This document shows positions 26,568 through 63,435 of a stretch of 64,000 nucleotides of DNA, piece after piece. Below the pieces are notes generated by a model. The model did not search any database and had not been told where the DNA came from. It worked only from the letters and a program-made list of their open reading frames with translations. Source of the DNA: Paraspadella gotoi (lineage: Eukaryota; Animalia; Chaetognatha); NCBI GenBank assembly GCA_051294375.1, contig JBJCIZ010000239.1, positions 6,033,074 to 6,097,073 on the forward strand. The letters are read 5' to 3'. The first letter of the stretch is position 1. Each line of letters opens with the position of its first letter. A program made the translations under genes and the position numbers.

Positions 26568-26679
26568 TTCGTCGTCGTCTAACCAACAACGGTTTTTTCT
26601 TTCTTGGCGTCGTGGTTCACCTGAACTGTGCAATGTTCGATATGGCAAATTGCCATTCCTCCATTCCTCACCATGGAAG
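26181..26679 (-). CDS. Possible Asp-rich exon (unassigned)
   Basis: Open frame of ~500 nt after acceptor-like ccccttcgtttctcccag. Non-repetitive segments alternate with poly-Asp. No recognisable homology, and (GAC)n tracts are also non-coding elsewhere in this window. Confidence 0.2.
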
Positions 26680-31322: not shown

Positions 31323-32603
31323 GTTATTAATAAAAAAAGGTTTTCCTTTCCACATTTATTTTTAAGTCAAAAGAATAACACATAAATACACAAAATCACT
31401 AATACTAACATTTTGATTGCATATTAACTATTTGTTGAAATTAGGGCCTGTTTATATACCATACAGAGTATTATTAAAATATATTTAAGAAATCTAAACC
31501 TAATTGCTAATTTAAAATATTTAAACCAAAGTATATTTAAAATTAAATTAATTTAATTAATTAATTCAATTCAGTTAATTTTCTAACCTATCGGATTCTT
31601 TTTCTTTGACCAGGGAAAAGTCAGTTTCTCTGCCCGATAGATAATATATCGCCAAATTTTCCGTTTCAAAATTTGATTCCCTTGGAGAATTGGGGGTGTA
31701 TTTTGTCGTCCCCGACACCAACGTGCGAGGGAGAAGGCGTAAGAACACAGCCGGAACGAACTCTTTATGGCGATGTCTTTTCATAACGACTGTTCTGGAG
31801 AGAAAGAGAGAAGAAGGAGAATTAATAATCCTGTTTTAGAGGACAATATTAGTTTACTTAATAAAAACTGATTTAAGAAATGAAAGCGCCGCATTAAGAT
31901 CAAGGAGGAGAATAATAATCTTTTTTTGAGCGATTAATAATTAGTCACTTTATTAAAAACCGAATTTAAAAAGGACCGGGCTGCAATTAGATCGAGGAGG
32001 GAATAATAATCTTTTTTGAACACGAATAGTTTACTACCCATAAAATTAAATGGCATTAATTACAATCGGACTAAGCAAAACCTACTAAAAACTAGAAAAT
32101 ACGGCATGGTGGCGTCATTTAATAAAGTAAGTATCTTGTCCCGGACTTTGGACAGGCTTTTGTGTTTAAGGCCTCCACTCACACTTACAGAATAATATAT
32201 ATAATACCACTTCATTTATTATCAATTGGTCCTCCGTCCTTCGTCCTTCGTCGCATGCTAACAAGATTTAAGCAGCGTTAGGCGTCGTTGCTTCTTACGG
32301 AATTTTAGCTTGGAGAAATAGTTTGGAAAAGATTAGACAGTTAACAAAACTGTCTGGCGCTAGGAGGAGGCCAACAATATAATTCAATAAGATTCTAATT
32401 CTAAATTAGAAACATGGTCATCATATTAAGGTAGACAAAATAGTTGATGTTCTGATATACGCAATGAGTCTATTTAAAACATTGAATAATTAAATAAAAA
32501 TATTTTTTAAAAAAAGCTAAATGAAGCGATGCTAAAGTCAAGACGATGTAATGACGCAGGAAAAAGCGCGAGAAATTTAGTTTTTATTCAATGGAAAAGG
32601 ATC

Positions 32604-34069
32604 TACTATGATGGAAAAAAAAAATGTCACGGTTTCTTAACTAAATTTAATCTTAATTTATTCTTTAATCTCATGTTACAAGTGTATATAAGTTTTAAAC
32701 CACCAGAACTTTCAAAAATTTTAAAAAAAATCAATATTTATTAAATGAAAACTTTTATATTTAATTATTAAAAATTTTATAATTCATTATTTAATCATTA
32801 ATATAAAAACCATAAAAATTATTAAAAAATTATAATATTTAATTTTTTTGAATTACTTTTTTTAAACATAATTAAACAATTCAAGGAATTAGATATTTAT
32901 TAGATTTATGATAAAAAATAATTTTAACAAATAAAATTTTTTTTTTAAATTTTATTATATTACACAATAGGGTGAATGATAAAAAGATTTTTGAACATTT
33001 TTTTACTGCCTATGGACATATAATTTAATAAATTTTTAAATACTTTTATAAAAAATTTTTAAATATAACAGTATAATAAATTAAATTTATGTGAAGTAAT
33101 ATCCTAAAAAAAATCACTATAATGTAAAAATTTTTACTATATTTAAAATGTTTTTAAATATTCTGATAGAAGTCTAAAAAAAATTAAACAAAATTATATT
33201 ACAACTTTTTAAAATCTATTAAAATTTTATTTATTAAAAATAACAAAAACTACTAATATTATCGGATTGATATGATAATAATTTTTTTAAATTTTTCTTA
33301 ATTTTAACCCACCTATCATTTAAAAATATTAAAAAAATATTAAATTTAACAAAATTTTAACTATGTTTTTTTTAAACTTTTTATAAAGAATCAAATTCTT
33401 TAATAAAAGCTTTTTTAAAATTTTTTTTTTAAATTTACTATTTTATAAAATATTATTACAAATATATAGATTTTATTATTCTATTCCCGAAACTATATGG
33501 AATAAAATATTTTTTAATAATAACTTAATCATTACTATTTTACCATCTAAATATTTTTACTTAATTACCCAAATATTTTTTTAGTTTTTAACTGCTCTAC
33601 TCTACTGCACAAAGCCAATAAAATATAAATCTTATGATTTTTTATAAATTTTTAATTTTTTATAAAAATTGATACAACCAATATAAAACTTATCTATTTA
33701 TTAATAAATAAAACTATTTTATCCCTGACTATGAACAGGCTTTAGTTAGTTTTAAAACCTTTTACCATTACTTACAAAAAATAAAACATAGCAGCGTCCT
33801 GAAAACATTAATCAAAACTTTTTAATATTATTAATATATCTAAAAATAAAAATATATTTATTTATAAAAAATTTAAATTTTATAATTTTAATAACCATTT
33901 CTTTTTTGGACATATGAATGAAAATTATCCATTGAATCAATTCTTATAAAATAATAATCTTTTCTAATATATTATTCTTAATTAAAAATATAAAAAAAAA
34001 ATATATATAATATAAAAATAAATAATAATTAAACAGTTGCTATAACAATTTTTTTCTTCCATCATGGTA
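32604..34069. mobile_element. Extremely AT-rich degenerate element with candidate TIRs
   Basis: tactatgatggaaaaaaaaaatgt at the left end; acaatttttttcttccatcatggta at the right end is its approximate reverse complement. No intact ORF. Confidence 0.4.
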
Positions 34070-36242: not shown

Positions 36243-36505
36243 CGCCGAAGAAAATGGACGGCGAAAAAAAGAGAGAAAAAAAGACGGCGTCTCTTTCACT
36301 CTCTCTTTATCTATCTCTCTCTCTCTCTCTTTCTTTCTATCTCTTTACAAAAAATGAAAACCACATTGTACAAAGTACATTGTACAATGAGCAAATTATA
36401 AATCAATTCGCCTCTCAGGTTTTAAATTTAATGGTGTTCACACTTGCTTAGTTAATTATTACCTATAATTTATCGTTTATCATTTTATCATTTTATCTAT
36501 CCCAG

Positions 36506-36699
36506 ATATCCTCCGCCCATCTATCCAACCCCCTCATCGACGACTACGGTCAAAACGACGCCGGGGCGCCGGGAGAGGACGGGCGTCAAGCGGCGCTTCC
36601 CGACGCCGCCGACGCCGACCTCAAGGAACGAGAGCGCCGCCTGTTGGAGAAGCATAAGATCAACGTCGTCTTGAGCGACGTCGTTCCTTTGAATAGAAG
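36506..36699 (+). CDS. GALNT: Polypeptide N-acetylgalactosaminyltransferase, stem-region exon
   Basis: Acceptor cccag|, donor AG|gtgagg. Translates ISSAHLSNPLIDDYGQNDAGAPGEDGRQAALPDAADADLKERERRLLEKHKINVVLSDVVPLNR, matching the GALNT stem pattern PGExG...N..SD.I.LNR. Ends in phase 2, compatible with the exon at 53859. Confidence 0.88.
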
Positions 36700-37789
36700 G
36701 TGAGGGAGGAGAGGGAGGGAGAGGGAAAAGGGGGGAGAGAAGGGTAGGGAAGTGAGAGAAGGGTGGGGGATATTAAGAGGGGGGAGGAAATAGGGGCATA
36801 AAGAAGGGCGAGGGAGAGAGGGAGGAAATAAAGAGAGGGGAGTGAGAAAAAGTATAATCATAAAATTAAATGGATTTAAGAGTCGTCACTTATCAAAATA
36901 AAATGGCTACTCTCATTCGGTTAAAATTTTAAAATAATTTGTCATTTATTGGCAATACTTATTTCGATCCTCTCCTCAAAACAACGCGGAACTCCAGCCA
37001 AAAATATTTAAAACTTTAATTATTATTCGGAATTAGCAGAAGTGTAAGTGTAAAATTAAAATGTAAATGTAAAAGGAAAACGTAAATAATCAATAATCAA
37101 CGTATCTTCGGTGCGGTCTTTGTATTCTTTGTGTTCATCGTCGTCGTCGTCGTTGTCGTCGCCGTCCCGGTTCATCCAATTCTAATAAATTGGTACAATC
37201 AAAATCAATCAATAAACAGGCCAACATGCCTCAGGCCTTCGTCCATCCTACTAGATTCCATGGCTTGGCCCTTCAAAATATCCCAATCAATACTTTTTCT
37301 AGGACTAAGCTCTGACGAAAAAACCAGAGGTTTTTTTAAGATATTCTTTTACCGGCCAATGTTGAATGATGGAAATATTGCAATTGTTAAGTTTCAAAAG
37401 AATTCGACCATAAATATAGAAAATATTAAGCAAAATCTTCGGAAAATCCATTCCTTCTTTGGAAGATTTTCGCCATAGAAGATTTTTTCCCGAATCAGTG
37501 CATGACCGCTGTATATTTATTTGACTTATACAGGAAATACCGCAAAATAAAAAAAAATTAAAAAGAATTCAGACTGAGCGGGCGTGTTTATTTTCAGTAT
37601 TTTTTAGTCAAGACGTTTATGGATTTTCTTTGTTCCGGCGGCGTTGGATAGCCCAAACACTGCAGTTTCAGAAATCATCCGTGGTTTTGTAATATTTACT
37701 GCGCTACTGGTGCAAAAATTGCTAGGAACCAAAATTATCAGAAACCGCTTCGTTCTTTCGGATTTTTTTAGTCGGCTCTGCTTATCAGC

Positions 37790-38795
37790 AGATCCCGACT
37801 CTATAACTCACTTTTTCGGTCCGTCGGTCCGCCCCTCAATATTGTCGGGCACACACTTATATCATGTCAGAACATCGAATTATGATAAATTATGCAAAAA
37901 AAATGATGTCCGTCCGTCCGTCTGTCCGTCCGTCCGTCCGTCCGTCCGTCCGTCCGTCCGTCCGTCCGTCCGTCCGTCCGTCCGTCCGTCCGTCCGTCCG
38001 TCCGTCCGTCCGTCCGTCCCACCTTAGCAAAAAACACCAATTACTCGTGATTGGATGGATGGATTTAAATGAAATTTTTTGTGAGGATAGGTAAGTGTGT
38101 GATTGAGCTGGATATGAAGTTTCGATGGAATCGTCCGAGTGGAAATGAGTTTAAATGGAAAAAACAAAAAAAATATATTCACTATTTGAACACCAATTGC
38201 TCATGAGTGGATGGGCTGATTGACCTGAATTTTGTATGTGGGTAGGAAAGTGTTGTGATTGAACAGGAAATCAAGTTTCGAGGAATAGTTTGAGTGGAAA
38301 TGAGTTTAAATGGAAAAAAACAAAAAACCTGTTTTACTAAATGATTATGCTTCTTTTTCCTTTTATATTAAATGTATCTGCAGGATGTATTAATAAATCA
38401 AATAATTAATCAGTTAATTAATCAATTAGTAAATAAATTAATCAATAATTAATTAATTAGTCAATCAATCCGTCCATCCGTCCCATCTTAGCAAAAAGCT
38501 CCAATAACTCGTGATTGGCTGGTTGGATTGGAATTAAATTTTGTGTGTGGGTAGGAAAGTGTGTGATAAAGCTGGATATAAATTTTCGATGGAATCGTGT
38601 GAGTGGAAATTAGTTTAATGGAAAAAACATAAGTCGAATTTACTAAATCTTTTTACTTATTTTAACCAATAAATAAAAGTGAGTGAAGAAGCTAGATATA
38701 AAGTTTTGACGGAATGCAAGTTGAAAAAATTATGCAAGTTGAAAAATGATGCAAGTAAAAAAATCTTAAAAGCATAAGGATCGTCGCTATTGCAT

Positions 38796-38836
<41 letters not shown>

Positions 38837-39235
38837 GAGAGAGAGAGAGAGAGTGAGAGAGAAAGAGAGAGAGTGAGAGAGAGAGAGAGAGAAGGAGACA
38901 TAAAATAAAAAAATCTTAAAAGACTCAAGATCGAGCCAGAGCCACTATCATAGAAAATTAATGAAAAAAACCGGGAAAAAACGAATGAATCATGCGATAA
39001 CGAATTATTGATGTATAGTAATTGATTGAGTAATACTAATTGATTGATGTAACAGTAATTTATTGATGTAATAGGAATTGATTATTGATTCGATGATAAT
39101 CAATTATTGATGCGATGATAGTCATTCACTGCTGTGATGATAGTCATTCAGTGATGCGATGATTGTCATTCATTGATGCGATGATTGTCATTCATTGATG
39201 CGATGATAGTCAATAAAACAAACAAATGCGTGTAT

Positions 39236-39296
<61 letters not shown>

Positions 39297-39316
39297 AAAG
39301 AGAGAGAGAGAAAGAA

Positions 39317-39379
<63 letters not shown>

Positions 39380-39831
39380 AAGAGAAATAAATCCACGAAA
39401 ATCTCGGATGAAAATATGGGATTTTGTATTGAAAAAAAGCGCGGAATAAATGGCAATAATAAAAAGTTTTTAGAAGGAAAAAAATAATCAGAATTTTTCA
39501 AAAAACAAACGATCATGCAAGAGATCGGACAGATAGGGACAGACACACACAGAGAGACAGAGAGACAGAGAGAGAGAGAGAAAAAGAGAGAGAGAGAGAG
39601 ACAGCCGCTGCAGAGAAAAGAGAAAGAAAAAGAGCGATATATAATAATTAAAAGAGAGAAAGAGAGAGAAGCTCTACAGCCCCTTTACTCGTTAAAGAAT
39701 CAGCAGTACTTATGGCGCCGCACGTAGCGTGAGCTATTCTCTACCCAAAGGACCCGGGTTCGAGCACGGTTCGCGGCATCGTTTTTACATTAGTGAACCC
39801 ACATTATATCTAAAAAATTTTTGTTAAAAAA

Positions 39832-39884
<53 letters not shown>

Positions 39885-40375
39885 AAGAAGCTGGACAGAC
39901 GCTGCAGAGCCGGAACTCGTTTTTAGACAAATCAGAAGAAGCAGTGACGGAGAAAAAGAGAGAGAGAGAGAGCGACATATAATTAAAACGTTTTTGTTTT
40001 GTAAATAAAACATAAACAAATACGAATATTGATATGAAACATGAGAATTTTAAAGATCTTGATGATTAAAAGCCATATATGAAAATTCAACTCCCTATGA
40101 TATCACATTTTCAGAAGCCATGATTGCAAAAAAGCGAGACCGAAAGCTAAACCGAATCAAAATCTAGACAGGACGGGCTTTGCCCGCCTGGCTCGATAAT
40201 AGAGGATATTTGTTTGTTTTGATAAAATGTAAACAAAACATTTAATAACTGTCCTGACTCAATTTTAAGGACATCGATGATACAAGCTGAATATAAATTT
40301 AATTAATCTATTAATTAATTAAATAATTAATTAATTATCGTAGGCAGATCCGACATTGTTTGCTCAAACTTGTTC
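37790..40375 (+). mobile_element. Non-autonomous interspersed element with (GTCC)n and ~125-bp internal subrepeats (DINE-1/Helentron-like), interrupted
   Basis: 37790-38460 and 40300-40375 match the reverse complement of 62780-63435. Contains (CCGT)n at 37908-38019. The family assignment is an inference from the GTCY tract. Confidence 0.55.
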
Positions 40376-41050
40376 TAAGCGCGGAGCGATATATCTGTGG
40401 ATTCGATCCCCGAATCTCTGAGCCACGAGTGAATAAACACTGTGAGCTCACATCTGCCTCACTTCTCAAGTTTCTTATATAAAACTTATATCAATTATTA
40501 CTGTCACTTATTTTAGACATATGAACAATCTATTCATACTATATTAACTATGCCATCTAGCGAGTTTAATTATAATTATTGTTGAGTGAAGATAATTCAC
40601 TATTTCTCCTAGTTTCAACTATACAAAATGGAGTCATCTAATTCTACCAATCGTTACCGTTAATTATTGATTTAATAATTGTTATTATGTTAAAATATCC
40701 AAATAAAATATAAAAAAAAATTTAGAGAGCCCTTCAGACATATGGCTATCGGATTTCTGAATTCGAAGTTTATTGTAAAATCACAACATATGTTAAATGC
40801 GTTTACATTGTATTTAAGTTAAGAAATCCTTTTATTTTATAGATAAAAATTGCGTCGAAAATTTGAATCTGAGAGTTTGATGTCAAAATGCTGGTTATTT
40901 GACAAAAGAAAAAAATATGCGAGCCCGGAATTTTTATCAGGAGCGTTTATATTGTTTGGTAGTCGGATTTGAACGGAAAATCTCCACTGAAAAAAAATCT
41001 TCCTCGATCTCTAAGATTAAGAACGACGTCAGCTCCTACTTTTTCGGTCC

Positions 41051-41081
41051 TCAAATGAGAAGCGCCTCAACCCGTAACGTC

Positions 41082-41112
<31 letters not shown>

Positions 41113-41208
41113 TATCGTTTCTTAATTCCACGGCGCCGTCGATCATGCAAGTTCCTTTGATAATATTTTTGCAATCCTCGCAAGTCGGGGCGCAGATGGG
41201 CGGGAGGC
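41051..41208 (-). CDS. Cys-rich gene C, terminal exon 4
   Basis: (ct)n-ag| (G)LPPICAPTCEDCKNIIKGTCMIDGAVELRNDIVVVVVVVVVATLRVEALLI*. Confidence 0.87.
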
Positions 41209-41469
41209 CTAGAGAGAGAGAGAGAGAGAGAGGCAGGCAGAATCGGGGGTACACATTGAATGGCATCAGCCTCGAATCACATCTGTAATAGGGAGGAAAG
41301 AATAAAATTTCATACAGCCCTAATTTGCACTGCCGATTTCTCCCCCCCCCCGTCAGTAATTAATCATCATTGACCATTGGCTCATTGTGTATTGACCATA
41401 ATGTTTTGGGTTCGATCCTAACCGGGCAACCTGCCCCGATGACAGATCTAAGTCAACCACCCACACTAT

Positions 41470-41790
41470 CTAATCCCATACCAATCAAATCCTATGCCAA
41501 TCAATTCAAATTACAATCAAATCCCATACCAATCAAATCCCATACAAACCAAATTCTATGCCAATCAAATCTAATTACAATTAAATCCCATTCCAATCAA
41601 ATCCCATTCCAATAAAATCCCCTGCCAATCAAATCCCTTGCCAATCAAAATCCAATTACAATCAAATCCCATCGAAATTAGAAACAAATCCCATTCCAAT
41701 TTTGATCCGATGCCAATCAAATCTAATTACAGTCAAATCCTATATTAATCAAATCCCCTGCCAATCAAATCCCCTGCCAATCACATCCCA
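41470..41790 (+). repeat. Degenerate ~16-bp tandem repeat (CCAATCAAATCCCAT) in intron 3 of gene C
   Basis: Visible recurring unit. Confidence 0.8.
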
Positions 41791-41838
41791 CGACGAATCA
41801 TAGTTATAACTCAACCCCCCCCCCTTCAAACATCTCAC

Positions 41839-42042
41839 CTTCTTCGTCATGATTCTTTCCTCCTTTGCAGCAAGTCTTAAAGGTAAAGGGCTTCCCGTTG
41901 AATTCCTTTTGCTTCGTGCAGAACATTGTCGATTTGCAATTGAAGATAGTCTCCTCGACTTCGTCGTCCTGATGAGGTTCCACGCATCTGCCTCCGGCGT
42001 TGGTGCAGATACTGCAGTCGGGGATGCACAGGTTGGGCATGG
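41839..42042 (-). CDS. Cys-rich gene C, exon 3 (204 nt, phase 1-1)
   Basis: Pyrimidine tract ctctctttcc...cag| (P)MPNLCIPDCSICTNAGGRCVEPHQDDEVEETIFNCKSTMFCTKQKEFNGKPFTFKTCCKGGKNHDEE, donor G|gtgaga. Confidence 0.9.
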
Positions 42043-43283
42043 CTGGGGGGGGAAAGAGAGCCTAGGGTGGTCGGGTGAAGATTGCCGGGGGGATGACGAT
42101 TGGTGGGTCCGGAGAAGAGCGGGAGTTTAACCTGAGCGTCTCTCTATTCAAGCTTTCTCAGTGTGAAAAAAAAAATCGTCATTTTTCATTATCTTCAACT
42201 GCAAACAAAAAGCTTGACACATTGCTTGTTTATCATAATAAAATTTTTAAAAATTACATAGCTGGCAACATATTTGACAAAGCCAGACATCATTGTGTTA
42301 AATTGTATTAATAATTTTCTTTTAAATATAACAACCTTTATACTTTATAATTCTATTATTCATCATCTATTTTAATTTTTTTTTAAATTTCGCGGAATAG
42401 CCAATTGGAAAGGGTTCATTGACTGACTTAATGATCAAATTGTTTAGGTTTCTTTACTGCCACCATTTCACAAGACATAATAGGTTATGATTATTATGTC
42501 AGTATGTCCAGATTATCTGTACCCTTTCTGCAACCCGCATTCCGAATTTTCTTTTTTCCCCTTTCAAATGTATTAAATAAAAAAAATTATTTGAGAGAAT
42601 GATCGGCGTGGGGGATGCCATTGGTAAGCCTTAGTAACCCCACTTCCCGAACAAATTTTTAAACAAGGTTTTTTTTCCATCTATTTGAGACATGACACTA
42701 ACTATTGGCGATATTATTTTTTTTATTTCTTACAAGATATTTTGCGTAATCCGAGAAACGTTTAGCGTGTCAAAAAAATATGGAAAAAAATAAGAGAAAA
42801 ACGTTTTGACAAATTTAAAAATTTATGGAGGAATCTAATATAAGCTATCTGGCATCCTAACTTGGGACAGGCTATGAAGGGTTAAGGCCTCCACCCACTT
42901 ACAGGGTAATAACCTAACATACATATTATTTAATTTTAACTGAACAAACAGTCAACTTAGAACAAGGTACATCGAGTAATGAGCATCAATTTACGAAGTG
43001 CTAACCGTTATTAAACATTATTTATTTATCATTTTTAAATGTCAATATGATCGAGAGAAAGAATTGCATACTAAAACATATATGCTGTGGTTTCGTCGCC
43101 ACGGGGTTCACACCAGCTGGTCACTTTGTCGTAAGGTCTCTCTTTTTCTCTCTCTTCTGTTATTTAACCTGCCAATAGAATGTATTATGTGCCTCTACAA
43201 TACTTTACATACTTGAATGCTCCATGAAAAAAAAAGAGGAAATCACGAATACAAGAGCTCACAACCCACATTAAATAACTCAC

Positions 43284-43496
43284 GTCTTCCTTCCATGTGA
43301 GCTCCTTTGCAACAACCCTGAAACTTGACTTTTTCTCCCGCGAATTTCGTTTGTGTTTTGCAGAATTTTGCAGACTTGCAATTCCTAACTCCCTCGATGT
43401 CTGGATCCGGGGGTTCCTCTCTCTGCGGCGGATCTTCCACGCAATTGCCAGACAATTCTTGCATGCAACGGTCGCAGTTTTCAGAGCAGACCTTTT
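43284..43496 (-). CDS. Cys-rich gene C, exon 2 (213 nt, phase 1-1)
   Basis: caaacag| (E)KVCSENCDRCMQELSGNCVEDPPQREEPPDPDIEGVRNCKSAKFCKTQTKFAGEKVKFQGCCKGAHMEGR, donor C|gtgagt. Confidence 0.88.
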
Positions 43497-43779
43497 CTGT
43501 TTGTTGGTGGGTGGGTGGAAATGATTTTACAGAGTGGCATTAAATGACTAATGGTTTGGTTCTTTTTTTGGCAGAAAAAAATGGTGAAGTTTTTTTTTTA
43601 ATTACGTTTTTTTATAGAAAAAGTCAGATCAAAATTTAAAAGTTTGGCGTCCGGCGTTTTAAAAGATGAATCATGGTAATTTTTTAGCGAGTATAAAAAT
43701 GAAATAAAATAAAGTATAAAAATACTCAGGATATCTATCTCTCTCTCTGTGACAGAGTCTGTCTGTCTGTCTCACTCAC

Positions 43780-43939
43780 CATTGGACGTGTCGCAACAGA
43801 CATCATAATTGACCATTTTGTCTTCATGATATTCCACTCCTTGACAAAACGCATTTGTCTCACAGTTATTCACCTCCTCGTAAGCTAAGACTACTTTCAA
43901 AAGCAAAGCCAAACCGAGGACGATCACGGGCGTCGCCAT
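43780..43939 (-). CDS. Cys-rich gene C, exon 1 (not in supplied ORF track)
   Basis: aaaATGg start. MATPVIVLGLALLLKVVLA-YEEVNNCETNAFCQGVEYHEDKMVNYDVCCDTSN. Phase-1 donor G|gtgagt. The 5' end is nearly identical to gene B at the DNA level. Confidence 0.88.
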
Positions 43940-44074
43940 TTTGTATTTTTGTTTATAGTTTCTTTTCTCTTAAAGCTAATTCTTTATTAGCCAAAAGTAA
44001 AAAGTAAATGAGATTTTTAGGTCGACTGCGAAATTAGAATTTTCGATGTTCACTTTTAGTATGAAGTCTTTAGA

Positions 44075-44206
44075 GTTTTTGAATTTGTGACAACGATTTA
44101 TTTTATTAGACGGACTTGTTTCGACTCTTTGGGTTCGAGTCTTCATCACCAAAGAGTCGAAACATGTCCGTCTAATAAAATAAATCGTTGTCACAAATTC
44201 AAAAAC
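44075..44206. mobile_element. 58-bp near-perfect hairpin, Penelope-like inverted fragment with hammerhead-like core
   Basis: Arms 44075-44132 and 44149-44206 (one mismatch), 16-nt loop. The minus strand reads gTGATGA-a-gactc...gagtc-GAAAC. The arm resembles the flank of the 62631 motif. Confidence 0.65.
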
Positions 44207-45996
44207 ACTTTGTTTTCTCTAAATATTAAACAACGAAAAGAAAGGATTATCACATGTAGTATGAATTCAAAACAGACGACAAACTTTGTTAAAACAAAAA
44301 AAGCAAAGCAAAGCAAAGCAAAAAATTGGATAAAATTCTTCAAAAAATGTCACATCACTTAGTTTATTTATGACGATCCTATATATACATAATATTACAT
44401 ATACTCGGTTTGATTACAAAGTTAGTCGCTATCGAATCTTAAATATTAAACACAATCGAGGCGACTTAGCGCGAGGCCTTACCTACTCAATTCAACCTTG
44501 AGGGGCTTTGTGGTCAAATATGTAGAAAACATTATGGTACATTATGGTGCGTCTTCCAAGTCACGGGGTGAAGACATCACCCGATAGTTCACGCTCAGGG
44601 CTTTGATCCTGAGATGACCACATGTCACTGGCATTTTCAAACCGACACCATCACATTTCAGAAAGACAGACCGTGAAAGGATTGAACGATGTACTCGAGA
44701 CCGGTAAATGAGTAGGAACCTATTCAAGTCATTGATGCGAAATCTAACAAAAGGCGAATTTAGTATTCATCAAAAAATCATCAAATTGTAGCAGCTCAAG
44801 TGACGATGACAACAACAACATCAAACGACCACGACGATCAAGTTCACTGCCCATTATTCGACCACCTGACCTTGGGTCAGGTTTCACCTCTCTCACTTGA
44901 ACATTGAACATTGAGCATTGTTTTTTCTCTTTTTGGTTTTTACTATTGTTATTGACTTTTCATTATGGTTTACTTTTGGATTATAACCTTTCTTGTTTCC
45001 TTAAAGAAAAATTGCCTCAATATTTTTTGCTTTAGTCAACTACAAAATCAAGAAATTACGAGCAAAACGAGGCTCGAGCTCTATTATTCGAAACGAAATG
45101 CAAAAATTGAAAAAAAAATGTTTATAGAGTAGTATAGAGGAGTAATTTACTACTATCGGTACAATGTGAACTAACAGTCATCAAAAAAAATAATAAATCA
45201 CCAATGAACAATTTTCAGCAAATGTCGTTAAAGAAATTGAACAAAGTAAAACAGAATACGTGTTGTTGTCGTCGTCGTCGTCGTCGTCTTTTTTTTTCCC
45301 GCTCACTTTTATATTTCAAAGTCATCGACCTTATTTTCCAAAAGCATCCCATTTCCGCTTCAAAATTAGATTAATTTTCAGGGTTGTTCTTCGAGTAAGT
45401 AAGGGATTAAGGTTAAAGGTTAAGGACGGGGATTAGGATTAGGATTAGGGTTAGAATTAGCGAAGAGGATTAGGTTGAGGATTGGATTTAAATGAAATTG
45501 GTAAGACCAATATAAAAAATTATTATATTATAAATTAAAATTAAAATTAAGTTTCGGAGATTATGAAATAGAGCATTATTTTTTAAGGACGCCCCATTTT
45601 ATCTTAAATTCTAAATTAAGTTAAGTTTTTTAATTAAATATTAAGTTAAGAATAGTAATTAAGATTAAGTTAAAGATTAGATTAGTAATTAATGTGAGAG
45701 GTTTTGTTTATGATTTGGGTTCATGATTTGGATTAGGGAATAGCTTTAAATGTTAGAGGTTAAGGTTAAAAATTAAGGATAAAGGTTTAGGGTTAGGGTT
45801 TAGGATTAGGTTAAGGTTTGTAATTAAGGTTAAGGATTTGGGTTTGGGATTAGTTTAATAATTTAAGAACATATTTTTTTTTATTATAATATTTTTTTTT
45901 AAATTACGATAAATGGAATAAAACTCTTGACGGAAAAAAAGCGCCAGAAATTGAATGCTTTCGGAAAATAGCGCAAATGTGTTCATCTTCAGGTCT

Positions 45997-46160
45997 TCAT
46001 AATCTCAAAGTCGTTGCTTTCAACATCTCATCGACGACGACGACGACGACAACGACGACGAGAACGACGATTCCGTTTGCCGTGGGTTTCGCGCATGCGC
46101 TGAAACATTTTCCTCCTTCCTTTACGCAGTCTTCACATTTCGGTGTGCAGATGTTTAACA
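45997..46160 (-). CDS. Cys-rich gene B, terminal exon 4
   Basis: ttccccttcatctag| (V)LNICTPKCEDCVKEGGKCFSACAKPTANGIVVLVVVVVVVVVDEMLKATTLRL*. Confidence 0.85.
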
Positions 46161-46298
46161 CTAGATGAAGGGGAATTTGGGGGGGCGGGGACTTCAGGCC
46201 TTATTTTCCTAAAATGCCCTATGTAATCTTAAATTCGGAAATGGGTTAATTTCTTTCAAGTTAAAGATTAGGTTTGAGTTTAGGGTAAGGGATCGAAG

Positions 46299-46512
46299 TT
46301 AGAGATTAGGTTAGTGATTAGAGATTGGGTTAGTGATTAAAGATTAGATTAGTGATTAGAGATTAGATTAGTGATTAGAGATTAGGTAGTGATTAGAGAT
46401 TAGGTTAGTGATTAGAGATTAAGTTAGTGATTAGAGATTAGGTTAGTGATTAGAGATTAGGTTAGTGATTAGAGATTCGGTTAGTGATTAGAGATTAGGT
46501 TAGTGATTAGGG
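46299..46512 (+). repeat. 19-bp tandem repeat (TTAGTGATTAGAGATTAGG), about 11 copies
   Basis: Near-perfect periodicity; follows a MITE-like end at ~46198. Confidence 0.9.
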
Positions 46513-47669
46513 TTAAGGATAAGAGAATTACACGTAAAAAGAAAATCACTGAGGCGCAACGCATTTGATGGACCGATCTTGGTTTAAAATATTAACAATA
46601 TGCATGATCCAATTTACAAAAAACTTAATATCAAGAATATTCCCGTCATTGTAAATAGCTTTAGCGATTTACTTACCCCCCTCCATTAGCTTTAATTTTT
46701 TTCTTCAATTTTTTTTCCATATTTGTAACTTTTGCTACCTACTATGAAGATTTGTCTCTTACTTTTTCTACTATGAGCATTTTTCCTTTACTTTCTATAG
46801 AAATTTGCTCTTCTGTCTGCACCCACTAGATCTTCACTTGCATCGCTTTACACAAAATAGCAAATTTTTGCCTGTTTTGGTCTTAATAAACCAGATGGCT
46901 CCACAAACAAAAGAGCGTTTTTAAAACAAAATAGCAATTAAATTTAGTTTTAGTATATCTTTTCTGAAACAAAAGAACAGTCCTATTAAATCTTCTTTGT
47001 ATTTTCACCCTATTCTACAAGAGGGCTTTACAAATCAGGAGGCTTTTTGTAAGACAAAGAAACATTCAAAAATTTTATCTGCACCCACTGTTTGTAATTA
47101 GGAGCAAGTTTTACAAGGTTTTACAAAAATGTAAAAAAAAGGCACATGATTTATTGCGTCGTATTTAGACATAATTTTTAAAATAAAACAAATTTTAAAA
47201 TTTAAGGGAAGATAATTTCAAAAAGTCAAAGACCCAGACGGTCGCCTTGGCGTTTCCCTCGTGGAAAGGATGAGATGAAATCCATCGAAATTACCATAAC
47301 TTTGGATAGAACTGTTGAGGATTCAAATCCTTCAATTCTTCACCCCGCACAAACTGATATTGACTATGCTATTCAAGCATATTCTATTTAAGATTCATTA
47401 CTACTTTTTCTTTTTTAATCCTCCTTACCTTCATAGGTTTTTAATCCTAAATGATGCAAGTTGAAAAAAAAATTATTAGTGCCACAATAACAGTTCAGCT
47501 TAAGCCCTTGAAAGCGATTTACATGTATTGGCGCAGCCACTGGTTATAAGAATATGACCAAAAACCTCTGGCTTTTTTTTTTCAGGCAAGAGGGCTATGG
47601 GTTAGGGCGGACAGACAGACAGACAGAAAAAAAGATTTAAAATAAAGAAAGAAAGAAAGATAGAAAAAC

Positions 47670-47888
47670 CTGCTTTGTTGACCGGATGCTTTATTCCTTT
47701 ACAACAACCGTCGAAGGTTATCGGTTGGCCGTTGTGTTCTTTCTGCGACTTGCAGAAGTCGGCCGTTTTGCAATCGAGTACAGACTCTTCCATCTGCCCT
47801 GGAGGTTTCTTATGTTCTTCTCCTTTGATGCACTTCCCGTTGTATTTATTGCAGTCGGAGCACTTCACGATGCAAATATTCGGCAACT
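47670..47888 (-). CDS. Cys-rich gene B, exon 3 (219 nt, phase 1-1)
   Basis: (K)LPNICIVKCSDCNKYNGKCIKGEEHKKPPGQMEESVLDCKTADFCKSQKEHNGQPITFDGCCKGIKHPVNKA. The acceptor follows an A-rich tract (atypical); donor G|gttttt is weak. Confidence 0.8.
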
Positions 47889-47978
47889 CTTTTTTTTTTT
47901 TATTTCATTTGTATTTTATTTTAATTTTTATTTAGTTGTTTTTTATTTTTTAATTTAATTTAATTTTTTTATTTATTT

Positions 47979-48012
<34 letters not shown>

Positions 48013-48196
48013 CACGGAAAACATGAGGAAAGATAAGGGGGGCAGGAAGGGGGGGAAGAAGATGAGAGATGAGACGTTGAAGTTGATTTCGAAGATGAAA
48101 TATACATACTGACTAAATCTTTTTCTTTTTTCTTTCTCTCTTGCTCTTTTTATTTTTACACACTCTCTCTCTTTTTCTCTGTCTTTGGCTCTCTTA

Positions 48197-48246
<50 letters not shown>

Positions 48247-48306
48247 CTCTCTCTCTCTCTCTCCCTCTCTCTCCCCCCTCTCCCCCCTGACACCAATTCA
48301 ACTCAC

Positions 48307-48519
48307 TCTCGCCTTCATACGCGGCTCCCTTGCAGCATCCCTCCAACGTGACAGGCTCCCCGTTGAGCTTCATGACACGACCCTTGCAGAACTTGCTTGA
48401 CTTGCAATTTCTGGTGGTCTCCCCGTTGGCATCCGGCGGTTCCTCTATCTCAGCCGGGTCACCCATGCACTTTCCGCCTGTCATACGACAGGCCTGGCAA
48501 CTCTTCGCGCAGGCCTTGC
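48307..48519 (-). CDS. Cys-rich gene B, exon 2 (213 nt, phase 1-1)
   Basis: ctttctatcctctctacag| (G)KACAKSCQACRMTGGKCMGDPAEIEEPPDANGETTRNCKSSKFCKGRVMKLNGEPVTLEGCCKGAAYEGE, donor A|gtgagt. Confidence 0.88.
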
Positions 48520-49380
48520 CTGTAGAGAGGATAGAAAGGTCGTTTTACGTCGTATGAAATTGGTACAACCAATATAAAATTATCCATTTATTAATTAAAT
48601 AAGCTACCATGGACAAGCTTTGATGGTTTAGGGCGTCCATCATTCTCACAAGGTAATCACAAAGCAGGTTTCTGCAAGCTTTCAATCAAAACTCTCTCAC
48701 AGTCTCGTTTATTCACTACCAGAGCACCTGGATTCCCAATCAATGAAGTATAATATTTAAAAGAATGTTTCCATTGTTTAAAGGTCCACTTCATTATATT
48801 ATATGGTACTCCGCGCTCGCATCAAATTACATGGAGCTGAATTTTATTTTAATTTATTGTATTTTAGTGTATGGAACTAGAGCCCACGAATGCTATTGAT
48901 GCACTTCAGATAAGTAGTTGATGTAGATAATTTCGACAAAATATTACCTAAGCTGTTGAAGAGACATCACATGCATAAGAGATAATACTATTATTAATAG
49001 TTTAGTTTAAAGCAATTCGTAGTAGGACCGCCTTGAAAAATGATTCGTCCATAAGATTATTATTAAGAATCGAAATATTGTCAAACAAAAATAAAAATAC
49101 AATTGTAAATCCTACTACGAATTGCTTTCGACTAAACTATTACCAAAGCTATTTATAACGATATTATTGCTCATAATGGAAAATGGTAAATGGATCATTT
49201 CTTCCGACTGTATAATTACATTGACGTTTTCTCATAACTATGATAATTATCAACATTTAAATCATCGCTTCGTGTAACCATGGTGATTGGTGTGGACGAA
49301 CAACTATTACACGCAACCTCGGTCAAATGAATTGACCTTACTTTCAACCTATGGTGGACTAAATCCACCAACCGTTCATC

Positions 49381-49530
49381 AGCGGCCATTGGTGCCGGAG
49401 GCAAGTCATTCGCCTCCCAACCCAAAGGTGGGGTCCGGTGTCTAGCCCGTGGTCGTCTGCAGTAGAGGGACGGGCGCTTCACCCGCCTGTAACACGGTGT
49501 TACAGCCTGATCCGAAGCTCAGGGACTGCT
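49381..49530 (+). mobile_element. tRNA-SINE-like element (second family)
   Basis: tRNA-like head. cccaaaggt...gatccgaagctcagggactg is shared with 53390-53492; similar head at ~39710-39780. Confidence 0.5.
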
Positions 49531-50070
49531 TATATTGAACGGTTTCTGTCACTAACACATAACAATAATTACTGTCTCTTCAAACCTTACCTTCGGTCCT
49601 TTGCTCTTTCTCTTTATGGTCAAACATTGACCTTGTAAACATCCATTGTTATGGACTTAGTATCTGAGCCTTTTGACTCTTATTGTTATTTACTTTGTTG
49701 AAGAATAAATTCATTCTTACTCTGGAACTTGTTGCGTCAACAAGGTTTTTTTAAAGTTTTGCTAAAAGGTTTTTTTTTTCATTTCACGCCAGCAGGGACT
49801 AGCATTCGGTGTCGCCCGCTTTGAATGTCTTAACTTAGGCTCCAAATAAAAAAAAAAGAGTTTCATATTTTCCAGAAACTTTATTATCGATAATTATTCA
49901 CAGGAAACCTGTAAAAACAGGGTTTCCAAAGTGGGTGGACGGATCAAGTGAGTCTTAACAGAAACTAAAAAAAAACGATTTTCAAATATCTCTCTTCCTT
50001 TGAGAATAGACTTATGACGTCACTAAAAATTTAGCCTAAAGGCCGAAACAAGTCAATGATGGTCAACGGG

Positions 50071-50157
<87 letters not shown>

Positions 50158-50158
<1 letters not shown>

Positions 50159-50320
50159 CGACCCCTTCTTGCAACAGACTTCGAAGCTTTGCCCCGATGA
50201 TCCCTCCGCGTTGTCAAGTACTACGTTCGCGCAGTAAGAGTTCGTTTCGCAATCGGTCAGCGACTCGCCGCTCGAGAGCGAGGCGAGACCCAGAACGAGG
50301 ACGATCACGGACGCCGCCAT
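50158..50320 (-). CDS. Cys-rich gene B, exon 1
   Basis: aaaATGg start. MAASVIVLVLGLASLSSG-ESLTDCETNSYCANVVLDNAEGSSGQSFEVCCKKGS. Phase-1 donor G|gtaatg. Confidence 0.87.
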
Positions 50321-50895
50321 TTTGTTCACGTCTTTTTTTTTTCTTTCTCGTTCTCCTTAGTTTCTGTAATCGTTTCGTTTGTTTAAAAACTAAGAGGGAT
50401 TTTCTTCGTCGGATTTTTTTTTAAAAATCTTTTCATTTATCGAGAGAAACTAAAATGAATTACTAAGCTGCTCGCGTATTTACTGAATTGACTCTTACAT
50501 CCTATTCGCTACACGAAAAAAAATCTAATCTCAAATTATTTAACTCAAACCGATTTAAATATTGTATTTAAATTAATGTTAAAACTGTATTATAATATTA
50601 TATTAATCTATCGCTAAATTATAAATCGTTTCCTCAAATTTATCCATTTTAAACTGATTAAAACATAAGATGTAAGAATATTTTAATCATTATCAATTTA
50701 TATAGTTATTTAATTATTTTTTCCTAATCTATTTAATTATTTACTTATTTTTTAAATTTATTTATTAATGTGTTTATTTTTTTTATTTATTAATCGTCCT
50801 AAATTAACAAACGAAATCCGAACAAAAGATCAATGAGGAAACGAGTCAATTTTTCTCCGTCGTAAATTCTTCGCTCTTAAGCTTCTTTCCCTTCA

Positions 50896-50997
50896 AGACC
50901 CAACAGGAGACCCAACAGGAGACCCAACAGGAGACCCAACAGGAGACCCAACAGGAGACCCAACAGGAGACCCAACAGGAGACCCAACAGGAGACCC
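50896..50997 (+). repeat. 12-bp perfect tandem repeat (AGACCCAACAGG) x8.5
   Basis: Directly abuts the predicted stop codon of gene A. Confidence 0.95.
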
Positions 50998-51286
50998 TAG
51001 ATTCTCCCACTTTCGGTCTTTGAACTGCGGACGGAGTTTTTCTTGGGTCTCAAGACCCTCGGGGTCTTCAGCTTTCGGGTTCGGATCTTCGGGAGTCGGC
51101 CTGCAACGGTTCGACGACGGGGGGCCGACGACGATGACGACGATGCTTGGTCCAACGACCCGACGAAGACGACGACGACGACGACGACGACGAGATTCCA
51201 GTGAAGTTCCAAGGTGGCGGCTCCGCAGCAGCCTCTCAGTTCTTGGCATTCCGCGCACGAAATAGTGCAGTGCGGCCTTTTAAAGG
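50997..51286 (-). CDS. Cys-rich gene A, exon 2 (C-half of module + hydrophobic segment + tail)
   Basis: Acceptor tttctctatttgacgtcaacag|, phase 1. (A)FKRPHCTISCAECQELRGCCGAATLELHWNLVVVVVVVVFVGSL...SGRI*. The true C-terminus after the poly-Val is uncertain. Confidence 0.75.
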
Positions 51287-51622
51287 CTGTTGACGTCAAA
51301 TAGAGAAACTTCCGGTGGTTAGAGTACAAGAATCTGTATCAATTTTTTTTTAATCTTTAATTTAGTTTTAAAATTCATGAAATTGGTACAACCAATATAA
51401 TAATTATTCATTCATTGAATAAATAAGCAATTTTGCAACTGACTTTGGACAGGCTTAGGTTGTTTAAGGCCTCCATCACCCTTAAAAGGTAATGACATAG
51501 CAGGTCAATAAATAATTCAGTTTTCAGTTTTTTCATTTTTTCCACTGTATCTTTAATTCTATCTTTTTTCTTCTTTCTTTTTTTTATTCCTTATTTCTTT
51601 TTTCCCATTTTTTCCATATCTA

Positions 51623-51856
51623 TCTGTGGATAAGGCGCTACGTGGGCTGAAGATGACTATCCGTAACTTCTATAACCCCCTCTAGCAGCCATGGAACGGG
51701 TCCCTGGGCTTGGAACCAGGCTTGAGGGTTTGGCACGCCCCAAAGGCGGTTTACGGCCGTCCTCACGCTTCCCGCAGAATAGGTACCGGGTTGAGATTGA
51801 ACCCGGGACCTCGTGGTCATGGTCCGATGGCTTTACTCCATGAGCCGCCGGGTCAC
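51623..51856 (-). mobile_element. tRNA-derived SINE-like element
   Basis: Minus-strand B-box-like aggtcccgggttcaatc. Body ggcttggaaccag...ggttta.ggccgtcctcacgc is shared with 54860-55065. Confidence 0.6.
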
Positions 51857-51936
51857 AACGGAAGTTTTCATGGTAAACCCAGGCAATGCCCGACTACATA
51901 TCTCTTTTTAATCTTTTTCTCTAATCTTTAACTTAC

Positions 51937-52123
51937 CCTTGGTCTTCATGCAGCAACATTGAAACTTTTGCCGCAACTTCTTGCCCTTGTGCTCGGTTCT
52001 GGTTTTGCAGTAGAGATTCGACTTGCAGTTGAAGATGGTTTCTCGGCCTCCGGCGACGACGACGACGACGACGACGACGAGCAAGACGAAGACCACGACG
52101 ATGAATTGGCCGGAGCGAATCAT
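51937..52123 (-). CDS. Cys-rich 8C-module gene A, exon 1 (signal peptide + N-half of module)
   Basis: MIRSGQFIVVVFVLLVVVVVVVVAG-GRETIFNCKSNLYCKTRTEHKGKKLRQKFQCCCMKTK. Phase-1 donor G|gtaagt. Confidence 0.85.
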
Positions 52124-52168
52124 AACGCGTATATTCTCGATTAATAGACGTTGCTCTGAAAAAAATTA

Positions 52169-52375
52169 GGCACTATTTTCCAAAAGCTCCCCATATCTGT
52201 CTTTTTCCCCATTTTCCCCAACTCTAATGCTAAATCCTAATATTTTATTGTAATCTTCTACCAAATACCTAACCTTAATATCCAACCTTATCTGTATCCC
52301 CAACCCTTTTTAAACCTAAAAACTAATTTAATTCTGAGTTCAGGCTAAAATAGGGCGCTTTTTAAAAATATTGCC
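52169..52375. mobile_element. MITE with ~25-bp TIR and degenerate (CCCTAA)-like interior
   Basis: ggcactattttccaaaagctcccc ... agggcgctttttaaaaatattgcc. Related ends near 408, 45330, 46198, 52537-52805, 56091 and 60189-60470. Confidence 0.6.
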
Positions 52376-53858
52376 CGAAAATTAGGTTATTAAGGATGTA
52401 TATACTTTAGAATCGATAGTATTAATTTAAAAGCAATGTTTATTACCTTTGTAACTTTTTTTGATTACCTACGAATTGGAAATCCTTTTGCTCATAAACT
52501 CCACAATCGTTCTCTCCTCAGCCTCCATAGGTTTTTGGGCTTTATTTTCCCAAAAAACCATTTTACTAAATTTTTTTTATTACAATCTATGTAAGAGGTT
52601 AGTAATTAAAGTTACGGATTAAGTTAGTGATTAAGTTATAAATTAAGAATAAATGTTTATGGTTAGTGTTCAGTATTAAGTTATGGTTCACGAATAGAAG
52701 TTAGGGAAAAGTTATAAATTAAACATATTTAGATTAATTATTTAGGTTAAAATCAAATTTCGAGATAAATTTCCGAAAATGGGCCGCTCTGGGAAAATAA
52801 TACCGGTTTGGCCGTAACAAAAAATTAATCTGAAAAACTTAATTTGTCCTACATTCCAGAAAAGTAGAATTTTGGACACTTTGTTTGGTACATACATAAA
52901 TTGTAACATGTAAGAAACCTTTTCTTCCCCCTTCTTTTATTCGGGGTTAAAAAGAATAATCAAAGTTGTTTAAATCGAACAATTTGGGTTCTTTAGTACT
53001 TAGCTATTATAATATAAAAAAAACAGAAATAAAAAAATAATCTCCAATAAACGTTCTCGCGAAATTCCGCTCTTCGTCAAAAAAACGGTAACCGATTGGA
53101 CACGGACGCTTTACGGCCCCGTCACGCGCCCGGTTTACGACGACCCCTGACCTCTTTTCGACGCGTCACGTTCAGACGCCGAGGCTGGCGTCAAATAAAC
53201 TCACGCTCCCTGGCGGCGACCGGAACGTAACCACTTAACGCTGTACGACCCACGTAACCGAAGCGTACGCACAATGACGCAAGTCTTTTATATCTACTAA
53301 AATCCAAATATTCTATAATGTGCTGGTTTAAAATTTACCAGTCGATCACGGTCGGGATTCGCGCCAGACTGGAACCCTCTTCCGTAACGACCCAAAGGTC
53401 CGGGGTTCTGGCCTGGTGACATCCTAGAACTTGTGTAGCACGGAACCCGTCCGTAGCATGGTGCCACATCTAGATCCGAAGCTCAGGGACTGTTGTTTTA
53501 TGGACACTTTATGGAAAACTAATTTTAAATATTCATTCTGTCTTTTCTAATTTTAAATCTTTTCAGTAAAACTTAATTCTGACTCGGCTCTATTCTTTTC
53601 CCCCCACGTTGATTTAAATTAATTTTTTTTGTTTCAACTTTTTTTAAAATGTATTTTTCTCTTTCCCTTTAAAAGAAAGAAAAAACCTTCAAAAATATAA
53701 GAAAACGGTACAAGCATCATAAAAATTATAATATAATATATATTCTAATATGACTATTAAAGTATTAATATTTCCCTCCACCCCTTCTTACCCCTTCTAC
53801 CTCTCCCCCCCCCAACCCCCCAACACTCTGACCGCAACACCCCTTCCACAACCCCCAG

Positions 53859-53969
53859 GGTGCCCGACTCTCGCCATCCACTCTGCGCGTCACGTGACTA
53901 CGACGAGGACCTTCCGGACGCCAGCGTAATCGTCCCCTTTCACAACGAGTGGCCCTCGGTTTTGCTCAG
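53859..53969 (+). CDS. GALNT: GALNT exon, start of GT-A catalytic domain
   Basis: cccccag|...ag|gttcgt. (R)VPDSRHPLCASRDYDEDLPDASVIVPFHNEWPSVLL(R) matches the PD.R...C...Y...LP..SVI..FHNE..S.LLR motif. Confidence 0.95.
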
Positions 53970-54420: not shown

Positions 54421-54859
54421 TCATCCGCTGGAAAAGGTGAGTTGGACGGAATCGATCCCACCTCCGGCTGTTGTGACGAAGACGAATTCCTCCTTTTGCC
54501 TCTTGAGGTTGTTTTTGTCGTCGTCGTCGNNNNNNNNNNCATCGTCTTCGTTTTCGTCGTCGTCGTCGTCTTTCTCATCGTCTTCGTCTTTGACGTCGTA
54601 CTCCTCTTTGTTGTCGTTTTCGCAGTCGTCGTCTTCTTTGTTGTCGTCGTCGTTTTCCTCGTTGTCGTCGTCGTTGTCGTCTTTATCGTCGTCGTCGTAG
54701 CCTTTTTCGTTGTTTTCCCACTGATATTGCTATCGGTTATTTGCCTCACAGCGTTATCGTGATAGATCATATAAAATTTGTTGAACTGAAATAAAAATTA
54801 TCCGTTCATATTCAAAAAAATAAACTATCTCGACAATGACATACTTAAAAAATAATAAA

Positions 54860-59348: not shown

Positions 59349-59416
59349 GACAATCTACAGCCTCATCAATCGGACGCCGTGGAAATATTTGAGGGAGATC
59401 GTGTTAGTCGACGACG
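59349..59416 (+). CDS. GALNT: GALNT exon (3' end lost in N gap)
   Basis: ttcttgcag| then (R)TIYSLINRTPWKYLREIVLVDD, matching RT.hS...R.P...L.EIILVDD. Runs into Ns at 59417. Confidence 0.93.
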
Positions 59417-59991: not shown

Positions 59992-60169
59992 CCTCCCTGG
60001 GCGCCTCTTTCGACGACTACCTCCGAACCCACTTCCCCCAAGGGCTCGTCCGCCTTCTCCGCCTCCGAAGGCGCATCGGCCTCATCAAAGCAAGAAACGA
60101 AGGATGGAGGCAGTCTGAAGGGCGGGTGGTGGTGTTCCTGGACAGTCACATGGAGGTCAATTACGACTG
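59992..60169 (+). CDS. GALNT: GALNT exon containing the DxH metal-binding motif
   Basis: tatccag|...tg|gtgagg. SLGASFDDYLRTHFPQGLVRLLRLRRRIGLIKARNEGWRQSEGRVVVFLDSHMEVNYD(W) contains GLIxAR and FLDSH.E. Confidence 0.96.
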
Positions 60170-60558: not shown

Positions 60559-60684
60559 GCTTCGCCCTCTATTGCAAGAAATCCGCAACGATCCCCACGC
60601 GGTCGCGATGGCGCAGTTGGACTACGTCGATCGAGTCACGTTCTCCTACGACGGAACCGGAAGCGATGGAGCGCCGCTTGCCAG
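60559..60684 (+). CDS. GALNT: GALNT exon
   Basis: ttttactgtcag|...ag|gtaccg. (W)LRPLLQEIRNDPHAVAMAQLDYVDRVTFSYDGTGSDGAPLA(R) matches WL.PLL..I......V...ID.I...TF.Y. Confidence 0.92.
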
Positions 60685-61416: not shown

Positions 61417-61506
61417 ATTCGGGTTCGATTGGCCGCTCAACTTTTTTGATCTTTCCTTTCGCAAGGATCAACTGAAGAAACAAAAGACGCCAGTCGATTC
61501 TTTACC
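61417..61506 (+). CDS. GALNT: GALNT exon
   Basis: taacag|...cc|gtaaga. (R)FGFDWPLNFFDLSFRKDQLKKQKTPVDSL(P) matches G.F.W.L.F. Confidence 0.9.
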
Positions 61507-61643: not shown

Positions 61644-61762
61644 CGGGGCCGTGATGGTGGGGTCGGCCTTCGCCATCAACTCTTCCTACTTCGGTCATCT
61701 CGGCGCCTACGACGAAGGGATGGATATCTGGGGCGGGGAGAGACCTAGAGATGTCATTTCAG
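61644..61762 (+). CDS. GALNT: GALNT exon with Gal/GalNAc-T motif (apparent 1-nt frameshift)
   Basis: caacag| GAVMVGSAFAINSSYFGHLGAYDEGMDIWGGE, then gag-agac-cta-gag-atg-tca-ttt. Removing one base restores WGGENLEMSF. Donor ag|gtcagt. Confidence 0.92.
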
Positions 61763-62779: not shown

Positions 62780-63435
62780 AAACAAGTTTCAGCAAACAAT
62801 GTCGGATCTGCCCACGATCATTATCGGTAATTAATTAATTAGGCAATTAATTAATTAATTTGATCCGAAAATGTTTTGTTTTGATTGAATAATTGACTGA
62901 TTAATTTTTGTTGTATTAATACATCTTGTATTTACATTTAAAGAAAAAGAAAAAGAAGCATAATCAATTAGTAAAACAGGTTTCTTTGTTTTTCCATTTA
63001 AAGTCATTTCCACTCAAACGATTCCATCGAAACTTGATTTCCAGTTTAATCACACACTTTCTAACCAAATACAAAATTTCAAGACAATAGCCCCATCCAC
63101 TCATGAGTAATTGGTGTTCAAATAGTGAAATATATTTTTTTGTTTTTTCCATTTAACTCATTTCCACTCGGACGATTCCATCGAAACTTTATATCCAGCT
63201 CAATCACACACATCCCTACCCACACACAAAATTTCATTCCAATCCATCCTACCAATCACGAGTAATTGGTGTTTTTTGCTAAGGTGGGATGGACGGACGA
63301 AATCTTTTTTTTTTTTTTTTGCGCAATTTATATAATTCGATGTTCTGACATGATATAAGTGAATGTCCGACAAGATTGAGGGGGCGCACCGACGGACCCA
63401 ACAAAGTGAATTATAGAGTAAAGCAGATCCGACTA
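62780..63435 (-). mobile_element. Inverted copy of the 37790 element
   Basis: Shared blocks include cacttatatcatgtcagaacatcgaattat, cccaccttagcaaaaaacaccaattactcgtgattgg and ggcagatccgacattgtttgct. Confidence 0.6.

Follow-up and report, generated by a model that had tools for sequence, protein, structure and literature searches.

Three cysteine-repeat genes nested antisense in a single large intron of a GalNAc-transferase gene or pseudogene of Paraspadella gotoi

Introduction

Clusters of paralogous genes lying antisense in one intron of a host gene have already been published, and the architecture is ordinary in animals. The insect GMC oxidoreductase cluster is presented as 12 genes antisense in an 83-kb intron of flotillin-2 (Flo-2) in four insect species (PMC1891103), while the TipE/Teh cluster occupies the last intron of CG18675 and its expression is described as poorly correlated with that of the host (PMC3240667). 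OMGP, EVI2A and EVI2B lie antisense in intron 27b of NF1, and PMC5480124 describes their connection with the host protein as slight or absent. On a wider scale, 2357 nested genes in 1654 hosts are given for a ctenophore (PMC8527503), and a preprint states that nested genes favour the largest intron and that most mammalian pairs are uncorrelated (bioRxiv 10.1101/2023.05.02.539096). We describe here a comparable locus in the chaetognath Paraspadella gotoi, found in a window of 64,000 nucleotides (nt) taken from GenBank assembly GCA_051294375.1 (contig JBJCIZ010000239.1, positions 6,033,074 to 6,097,073, forward strand) and numbered from its first letter. Three genes, designated A, B and C, are encoded on the minus strand within one intron of a plus-strand polypeptide GalNAc-transferase (GALNT) gene; the literature searched returned no match for a gene nested in a GalNAc-transferase intron.

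This locus shares with GMC/Flo-2 a set of tandem paralogues (27–69% identical among the GMC genes), one large host intron, the opposite strand and host coding exons on both sides. According to the same source it differs in size (12 genes in 83 kb against 3 genes in 17 kb), in the conservation across four species of the insect cluster, and in content, with known enzymes there and an orphan family here, of which a fourth copy has the other orientation. TipE/Teh likewise consists of paralogous membrane-protein genes in one intron, the fly host spanning about 20 kb; its orientations are mixed and its function, as sodium-channel subunits, is known (as reported in PMC3240667). NF1 offers three antisense genes in the largest intron of the host; its intron measures 61 kb, and the available text of PMC5480124 does not describe the trio as a tandem repeat-protein family. 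Genes A to C are likely to be independent passengers that multiplied by local duplication, antisense in one GALNT intron, and that are spliced out of the GALNT pre-mRNA. The main value of the locus lies in an orphan 8-cysteine repeat whose internal and tandem duplications are still clearly legible.

Results and Discussion

A single GALNT intron contains genes A to C

Of the 69 candidates from a search with the GALNT exon bearing the Pfam domain PF00535, one was a full-length relative: P0001, an unnamed JGI protein of 568 amino acids, which is a GALNT with GT2 and ricin domains. Seven plus-strand exons of the window are colinear with residues 30 to 319 of P0001 and together share 67% identity with it over 287 residues, the six exons other than the seventh being 44–83% identical. 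The first GALNT exon found (36506–36699), which encodes the stem and the start of the catalytic domain, has AG/GT ends and matches P0001 residues 30–93 (44%); the second (53859–53969) matches residues 96–134 (64%). Matches to P0001 also placed the third (59349–59416, its 3' end lying within an N gap), fifth (60559–60684) and sixth (61417–61506) exons. The GT-A catalytic domain with its DxH motif is present on the fourth exon (59992–60169), as indicated by PF00535 (E=2e-7), four GALNT matches in the PDB and the residues D-S-H in the translation, and the seventh exon lies at 61644–61762. The window GALNT was sister to P0001 with a support of 0.994 in a tree of 118 sequences, for which 3 of the 120 relatives, those with alignments of at most 230 residues, were dropped. 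The seven next-best relatives shown are 50–53% identical to the window GALNT, and those relatives of P0001 that carry a name come mostly from molluscs, with at most 48% identity among the best matches. By its GT-A domain, DxH motif and exon order, the host resembles the polypeptide GalNAc-transferases (GT27) of a mostly molluscan clade.

The first two exons are separated by 17,159 nt (36700–53858), with the donor GT at 36700, the acceptor AG at 53857–53858 and a phase-2 junction. Joining 36699 to 53859 completes an arginine codon and leaves the frame open into the third exon at 59349, so that the in-frame junction proposed by the initial annotation, a reading of the letters alone, is borne out by both the splice ends and the colinearity with P0001. 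Chance is a poor explanation for this fit: the intron holds 1017 AG sites, 190 of which are followed by an in-phase frame of 36 codons, and the best of these 190 alternatives scored 15.8 bits against the P0001 segment vs 59.3 bits for the true acceptor. The DNA sequence thus confirms 36700–53858 as a single predicted intron of one GALNT gene. The remaining five GALNT inter-exon intervals measure 5379, about 575, 389, 732 and 137 nt, the 575-nt value including the N gap that hides the end of the third exon, and the early remark that the nested interval is far longer than the other GALNT introns holds. The coding exons of A, B and C all map to the minus strand, within 41051–52123, which upholds their antisense placement inside one GALNT intron, nesting being judged on coding spans. 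One copy of an inverted element of about 450 nt also lies in the intron (38007–38458), in a region of very high depth; the other copy is at 62845–63299, and the pair, 87% identical, is likely a dispersed repeat.

Sequencing reads bear on the continuity of this interval. Nine runs contain part of gene A, none of them recorded as RNA, and the contigs of four were compared over the left 10.6 kb only (36300–46900): X1, maybe the assembly's own sample, X5 and X6, from a second study, and X9, an RNA run by guess. Contigs of all three DNA runs, hence of two studies, cross the GALNT donor. It could still be argued that a foreign block carrying A to C was misassembled between adjacent GALNT exons, or that the two flanking exons stem from different GALNT copies, since the assembly is a draft, the window contains 13 N runs as well as a duplicated block rich in indels, very high-copy repeats at about 37.7–38.8 kb could hide a misjoin, and no single contig spans 36300–46900. 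None of the N runs falls within the intron, however, and tblastn with 120 GALNT proteins (E≤0.01) matched only the seven exons of the window, leaving no second exon set; those exons are perfectly colinear, and the same three of the 120 proteins (P0001, P0005 and P0036) rank highest for both flanking exons. The objection that the exons might belong to different GALNT paralogues, raised beforehand as a possible refutation, accordingly fails. Together with the contigs across the donor and the presence, 10 kb further on, of a fourth member of the nested family, which shows that this family lives at the GALNT locus, these data make a misassembly or a mixture of paralogues highly improbable.

Structure and splicing of the nested genes

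Gene A consists of four exons encoding 244 amino acids: exon 1 (43780–43939) with the ATG, a predicted signal peptide and the first half of repeat 1, exons 2 (43284–43496) and 3 (41839–42042), and exon 4 (41051–41208) with the second half of repeat 3, a hydrophobic tail and the stop. Gene B has the same layout over 252 amino acids, with exon 1 at 50158–50320 and exons 2 (48307–48519), 3 (47670–47888) and 4 (45997–46160), the last three also recovered by profile search. Gene C has two exons and 158 amino acids. Its first exon (51937–52123), with the ATG, a predicted signal peptide and the first half-repeat, was matched by a gene-A profile at 6e-10; its second (50997–51286), the least certain of the set, was placed by its AG acceptor, its phase 1 and its cysteine spacing, and carries a divergent second half-repeat, a short hydrophobic stretch, a basic tail and the stop. 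The seven introns of the three genes are all GT-AG, in phase 1 and at the same place in the repeat. An AATAAA is found 112–215 nt beyond each stop, a weak sign as this motif is common in AT-rich DNA. Just upstream of gene A, at 44072–44209, lies an imperfect palindrome (91% over 139 nt) resembling a miniature inverted-repeat transposable element (MITE).

Two contigs from X9 coincide exactly with 41839–42042 and 43284–43496, that is with exons 3 and 2 of gene A, and end at all four predicted splice sites. They have 30 and 139 letters left over, while DNA contigs run through the same points. The depths of the two X9 contigs were 70 and 88, vs 4–19 for the six other X9 pieces shown, although contig depths do not allow parts to be ranked. 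Splicing of gene A as modelled is therefore probable.

Repeat and gene duplication

The repeat follows the pattern C-x5-C-x15/18-CC-x7/14-C-x3-C-x2-C-x5/7-C and is present once in C and three times in A and in B. In every copy the phase-1 intron directly follows the CC. An internal exon therefore combines the second half of a repeat with the first half of its successor; this straddling would follow if the repeat was duplicated together with its intron. Identity is 25–52% between repeats and 30–52% between matched repeats. The best supported pairings in the repeat tree were A1 with B1 (0.93) and A2 with B2 (0.85), A3 and B3 remaining unpaired despite their 46% identity. Among 2445 six-frame segments, a profile built solely from gene A recovered two of the three first halves of B, its three second halves (one weakly, 0.45), exon 1 of C and a further copy, gene D. 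On these matches, A to C are paralogues.

Gene D lies on the GALNT strand, its exon 1 (63737–63893; gene-A profile, 2e-12) ending in a phase-1 GT donor and the rest lying past the window. The half-repeat of D most resembles repeat 3 of A (53%) and of B (50%), and no other copy of the family was found in the window. Since D starts at 63737, 2 kb past GALNT exon 7, the 8-cysteine family is not wholly contained in the 17,159-nt intron, and the initial annotation, from which D was missing, overstated its case in placing the whole cluster there. If GALNT continues past it, D would be a same-strand nested gene.

The coding spans of A to C cover 8,340 nt (49% of the intron) and the cluster 11,073 nt (65%); the 6,086 nt left without it are similar to the next GALNT intron (5,379 nt). 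The early proposal that the intron expanded by local gene duplication is supported in part by this share of the cluster and by the common three-repeat layout of A and B with its two tree pairings; the cluster may have arisen by duplication of a first copy in place or have arrived as a block. We propose that a founder with a single repeat and two exons, as in C or D, would have entered the GALNT locus, and that unequal crossing-over would have copied the repeat and its internal phase-1 intron. The resulting three-repeat gene may then have been duplicated in tandem into A and B, presumably long ago given the divergence of the matched repeats. Each nested gene would carry a promoter and a poly(A) site for its own use; as the spliceosome would remove the whole block from the GALNT pre-mRNA, no functional tie to GALNT would be needed. 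Copy D, in the other orientation, is likely inside a later GALNT intron.

Integrity of the host gene

Several observations weigh against this view of passengers in a working intron. Just after 61740, exon 7 contains a +1 frameshift (61741–61744), absent from the initial annotation, which hits the WGxENxE motif kept in 117 of 120 relatives; the sequence as assembled thus lacks an intact motif in an open frame, and the host GALNT may be broken. P0001 residues 327–568 found no match in the window, nor did the 5' anchor exon and the C-terminal ricin-type lectin domain of GALNT, points at which the sequence in the window differs from the GT27 enzymes. As for the reads, the lack of a contig spanning 36300–46900 was mentioned above; no joint across the introns of gene A was seen among the 15 shown of 440, X9 also contains intronic pieces, and of the 32 pieces shown of 71,612, none of the 8 from X9 lay on the GALNT exon in this interval. 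A transcript across 36699–53859 was not seen, with contigs compared over the left part only. Regarding the family, the repeat tree is short, with some groupings poorly resolved (support of 0.11 for A3 with C1), exon 2 of C was missed in the 2445 segments even when the profile combined A with B, and the GPI anchoring discussed below is based on hydropathy only.

The frameshift is either an assembly error or the mark of a pseudogene, so that the locus is classed as GALNT gene or pseudogene. A recently dead host would mean that A to C sit between dead exons, with no working intron and no interplay between host and nested genes. The damaged motif speaks for this, as do the absence of the 3' half of GALNT from the window, the same-strand paralogue D 2 kb downstream and, weakly, the lack of GALNT-exon pieces among those shown for X9. 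On the other hand, the six other exons are open and canonically spliced (the donor of exon 3 being hidden by Ns), and they retain the identity to P0001 given above. In addition, a duplicated block elsewhere in the window showed 170 gap openings vs 106 mismatches over 4,079 columns, which suggests long-read fill left unpolished in parts of the assembly, a kind of sequence in which extra single bases are frequent; because of this indel-rich block, the frameshift may be an error. We thus consider a pseudogene unlikely, and retain passengers in a functional intron as the preferred explanation. Gene finders may split this GALNT, and annotations of the locus should be read with this in mind.

The duplicated block itself is a tandem near-duplicate, 2606–6577 vs 9500–13382, 90% identical, rich in indels and adjacent to 25-N gaps; it is possibly an assembly artefact. 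A tie between gaps of 25 N and the filling of gaps with long reads found no confirmation in the literature consulted.

Predicted products and relation to the host

Hydropathy peaks are found at both ends of A and B, corresponding to a predicted signal peptide and a C-terminal hydrophobic tail, and small residues were seen by eye upstream of the tail; in C, a basic tail of about 55 residues comes after the second hydrophobic stretch. A to C are predicted to be cysteine-repeat surface proteins with a signal peptide and a likely glycosylphosphatidylinositol (GPI) anchor, C being a doubtful case because of its basic tail. Trinucleotide runs (41083–41112, 46032–46049, 51168–51191 and 52054–52080) encode the poly-valine segments, anchor or signal, of A, B and C, and make up 4 of the 13 runs of at least 5 units in the window.

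Ly6/uPAR three-finger proteins have a signal peptide and a GPI-type tail, contain small repeats rich in cysteine, one or three in number and each interrupted by an intron, and are organized in tandem clusters; their repeat opens with CxxC and closes with CC-x4-CN. The overall layout of A to C is similar; in contrast, the 8-cysteine repeat has neither the opening CxxC nor the closing CC-x4-CN, and they cannot be assigned to this family. Resemblances to furin-like/VSP and ShKT modules were set aside, the spacing being only partial and no Pfam match being obtained.

Searches for relatives used single exons, in which the repeat is cut in two, hence with limited sensitivity. None of 11 family exons reached the Pfam cut-off, one giving a PLA2_inh match below threshold (E=0.088). 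A word search with the four-exon alignment, confined to longer proteins, retained none of 398 candidates, none of 198 pattern matches in metagenome contigs was confirmed, two of two exons had no usable match in the ESM Atlas, and the best match among PDB sequences had E=0.24. HMMER against 1.84 billion representatives gave one match, P0121 (E=8.6e-10), which was rejected: it is a bacterial-looking repeat protein of 1093 amino acids, its score being the total of short CxxxxFC matches that lack both the CC and the second half-repeat. With the four-exon alignment as input, AlphaFold returned an uninformative model with a predicted local distance difference test (pLDDT) of 49, and Foldseek with this model returned nothing, an equally uninformative outcome. 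The literature yielded no match for GPI-anchored cysteine-rich repeats in Lophotrochozoa. These searches thus yielded no credible relative of the family, which is weak evidence of novelty since single-exon queries split the repeat; it could represent a lineage-specific surface, adhesion or recognition protein. For the host, a scan of metagenome contigs with P0001 found 50 loci with best-segment identities of 26–55%, none of which was used for synteny.

A functional link between host and guests may also be envisaged, in which mucus-secreting cells would express GALNT together with the nested surface proteins, or antisense transcription would make their expression mutually exclusive. The products of host and nested genes alike are routed into the secretory pathway, members of the 8-cysteine family occur at two places in the GALNT locus, the relatives of the host form an expanded, mostly molluscan group, and for the GMC cluster a tie to Flo-2 has been proposed. 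Against this, serine plus threonine account for 8–15% of A to C with no mucin-like tract, because of which these proteins, as judged from their sequences, are not obvious GALNT substrates, and the published accounts of TipE, of the NF1 trio and of most mammalian pairs, cited above, point away from co-expression with the host. A functional nesting is therefore very unlikely, and the co-regulation or transcriptional interference with GALNT suggested by the initial annotation finds no support, published nested clusters mostly not tracking their host. A broader version would make A to D a new family of GPI-anchored 8-cysteine-repeat surface proteins with a fold of their own, its presence in both orientations within two introns of a mucus-type GALNT being due to a locus that acts as a single unit in secretory cells, through shared enhancers or antisense switching; we find it quite unlikely. 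Independent passengers remain the explanation that we favour.

Other features of the window

No tRNA or Rfam match was obtained in the 64-kb window. An imperfect MITE-like palindrome is located at 21693–22246 (74% over 567 nt), and a very AT-rich island extends from 32001 to 34000 (G+C content of 0.20). Two Asp-rich open frames are present on the minus strand at 26181–26600 and 54421–54729, the latter antisense in the next GALNT intron. In this frame, A occupies the second codon position in 50 of 52 core codons, a pattern more codon-like than that of a decayed microsatellite, and both frames are possibly exons of an acidic protein gene.

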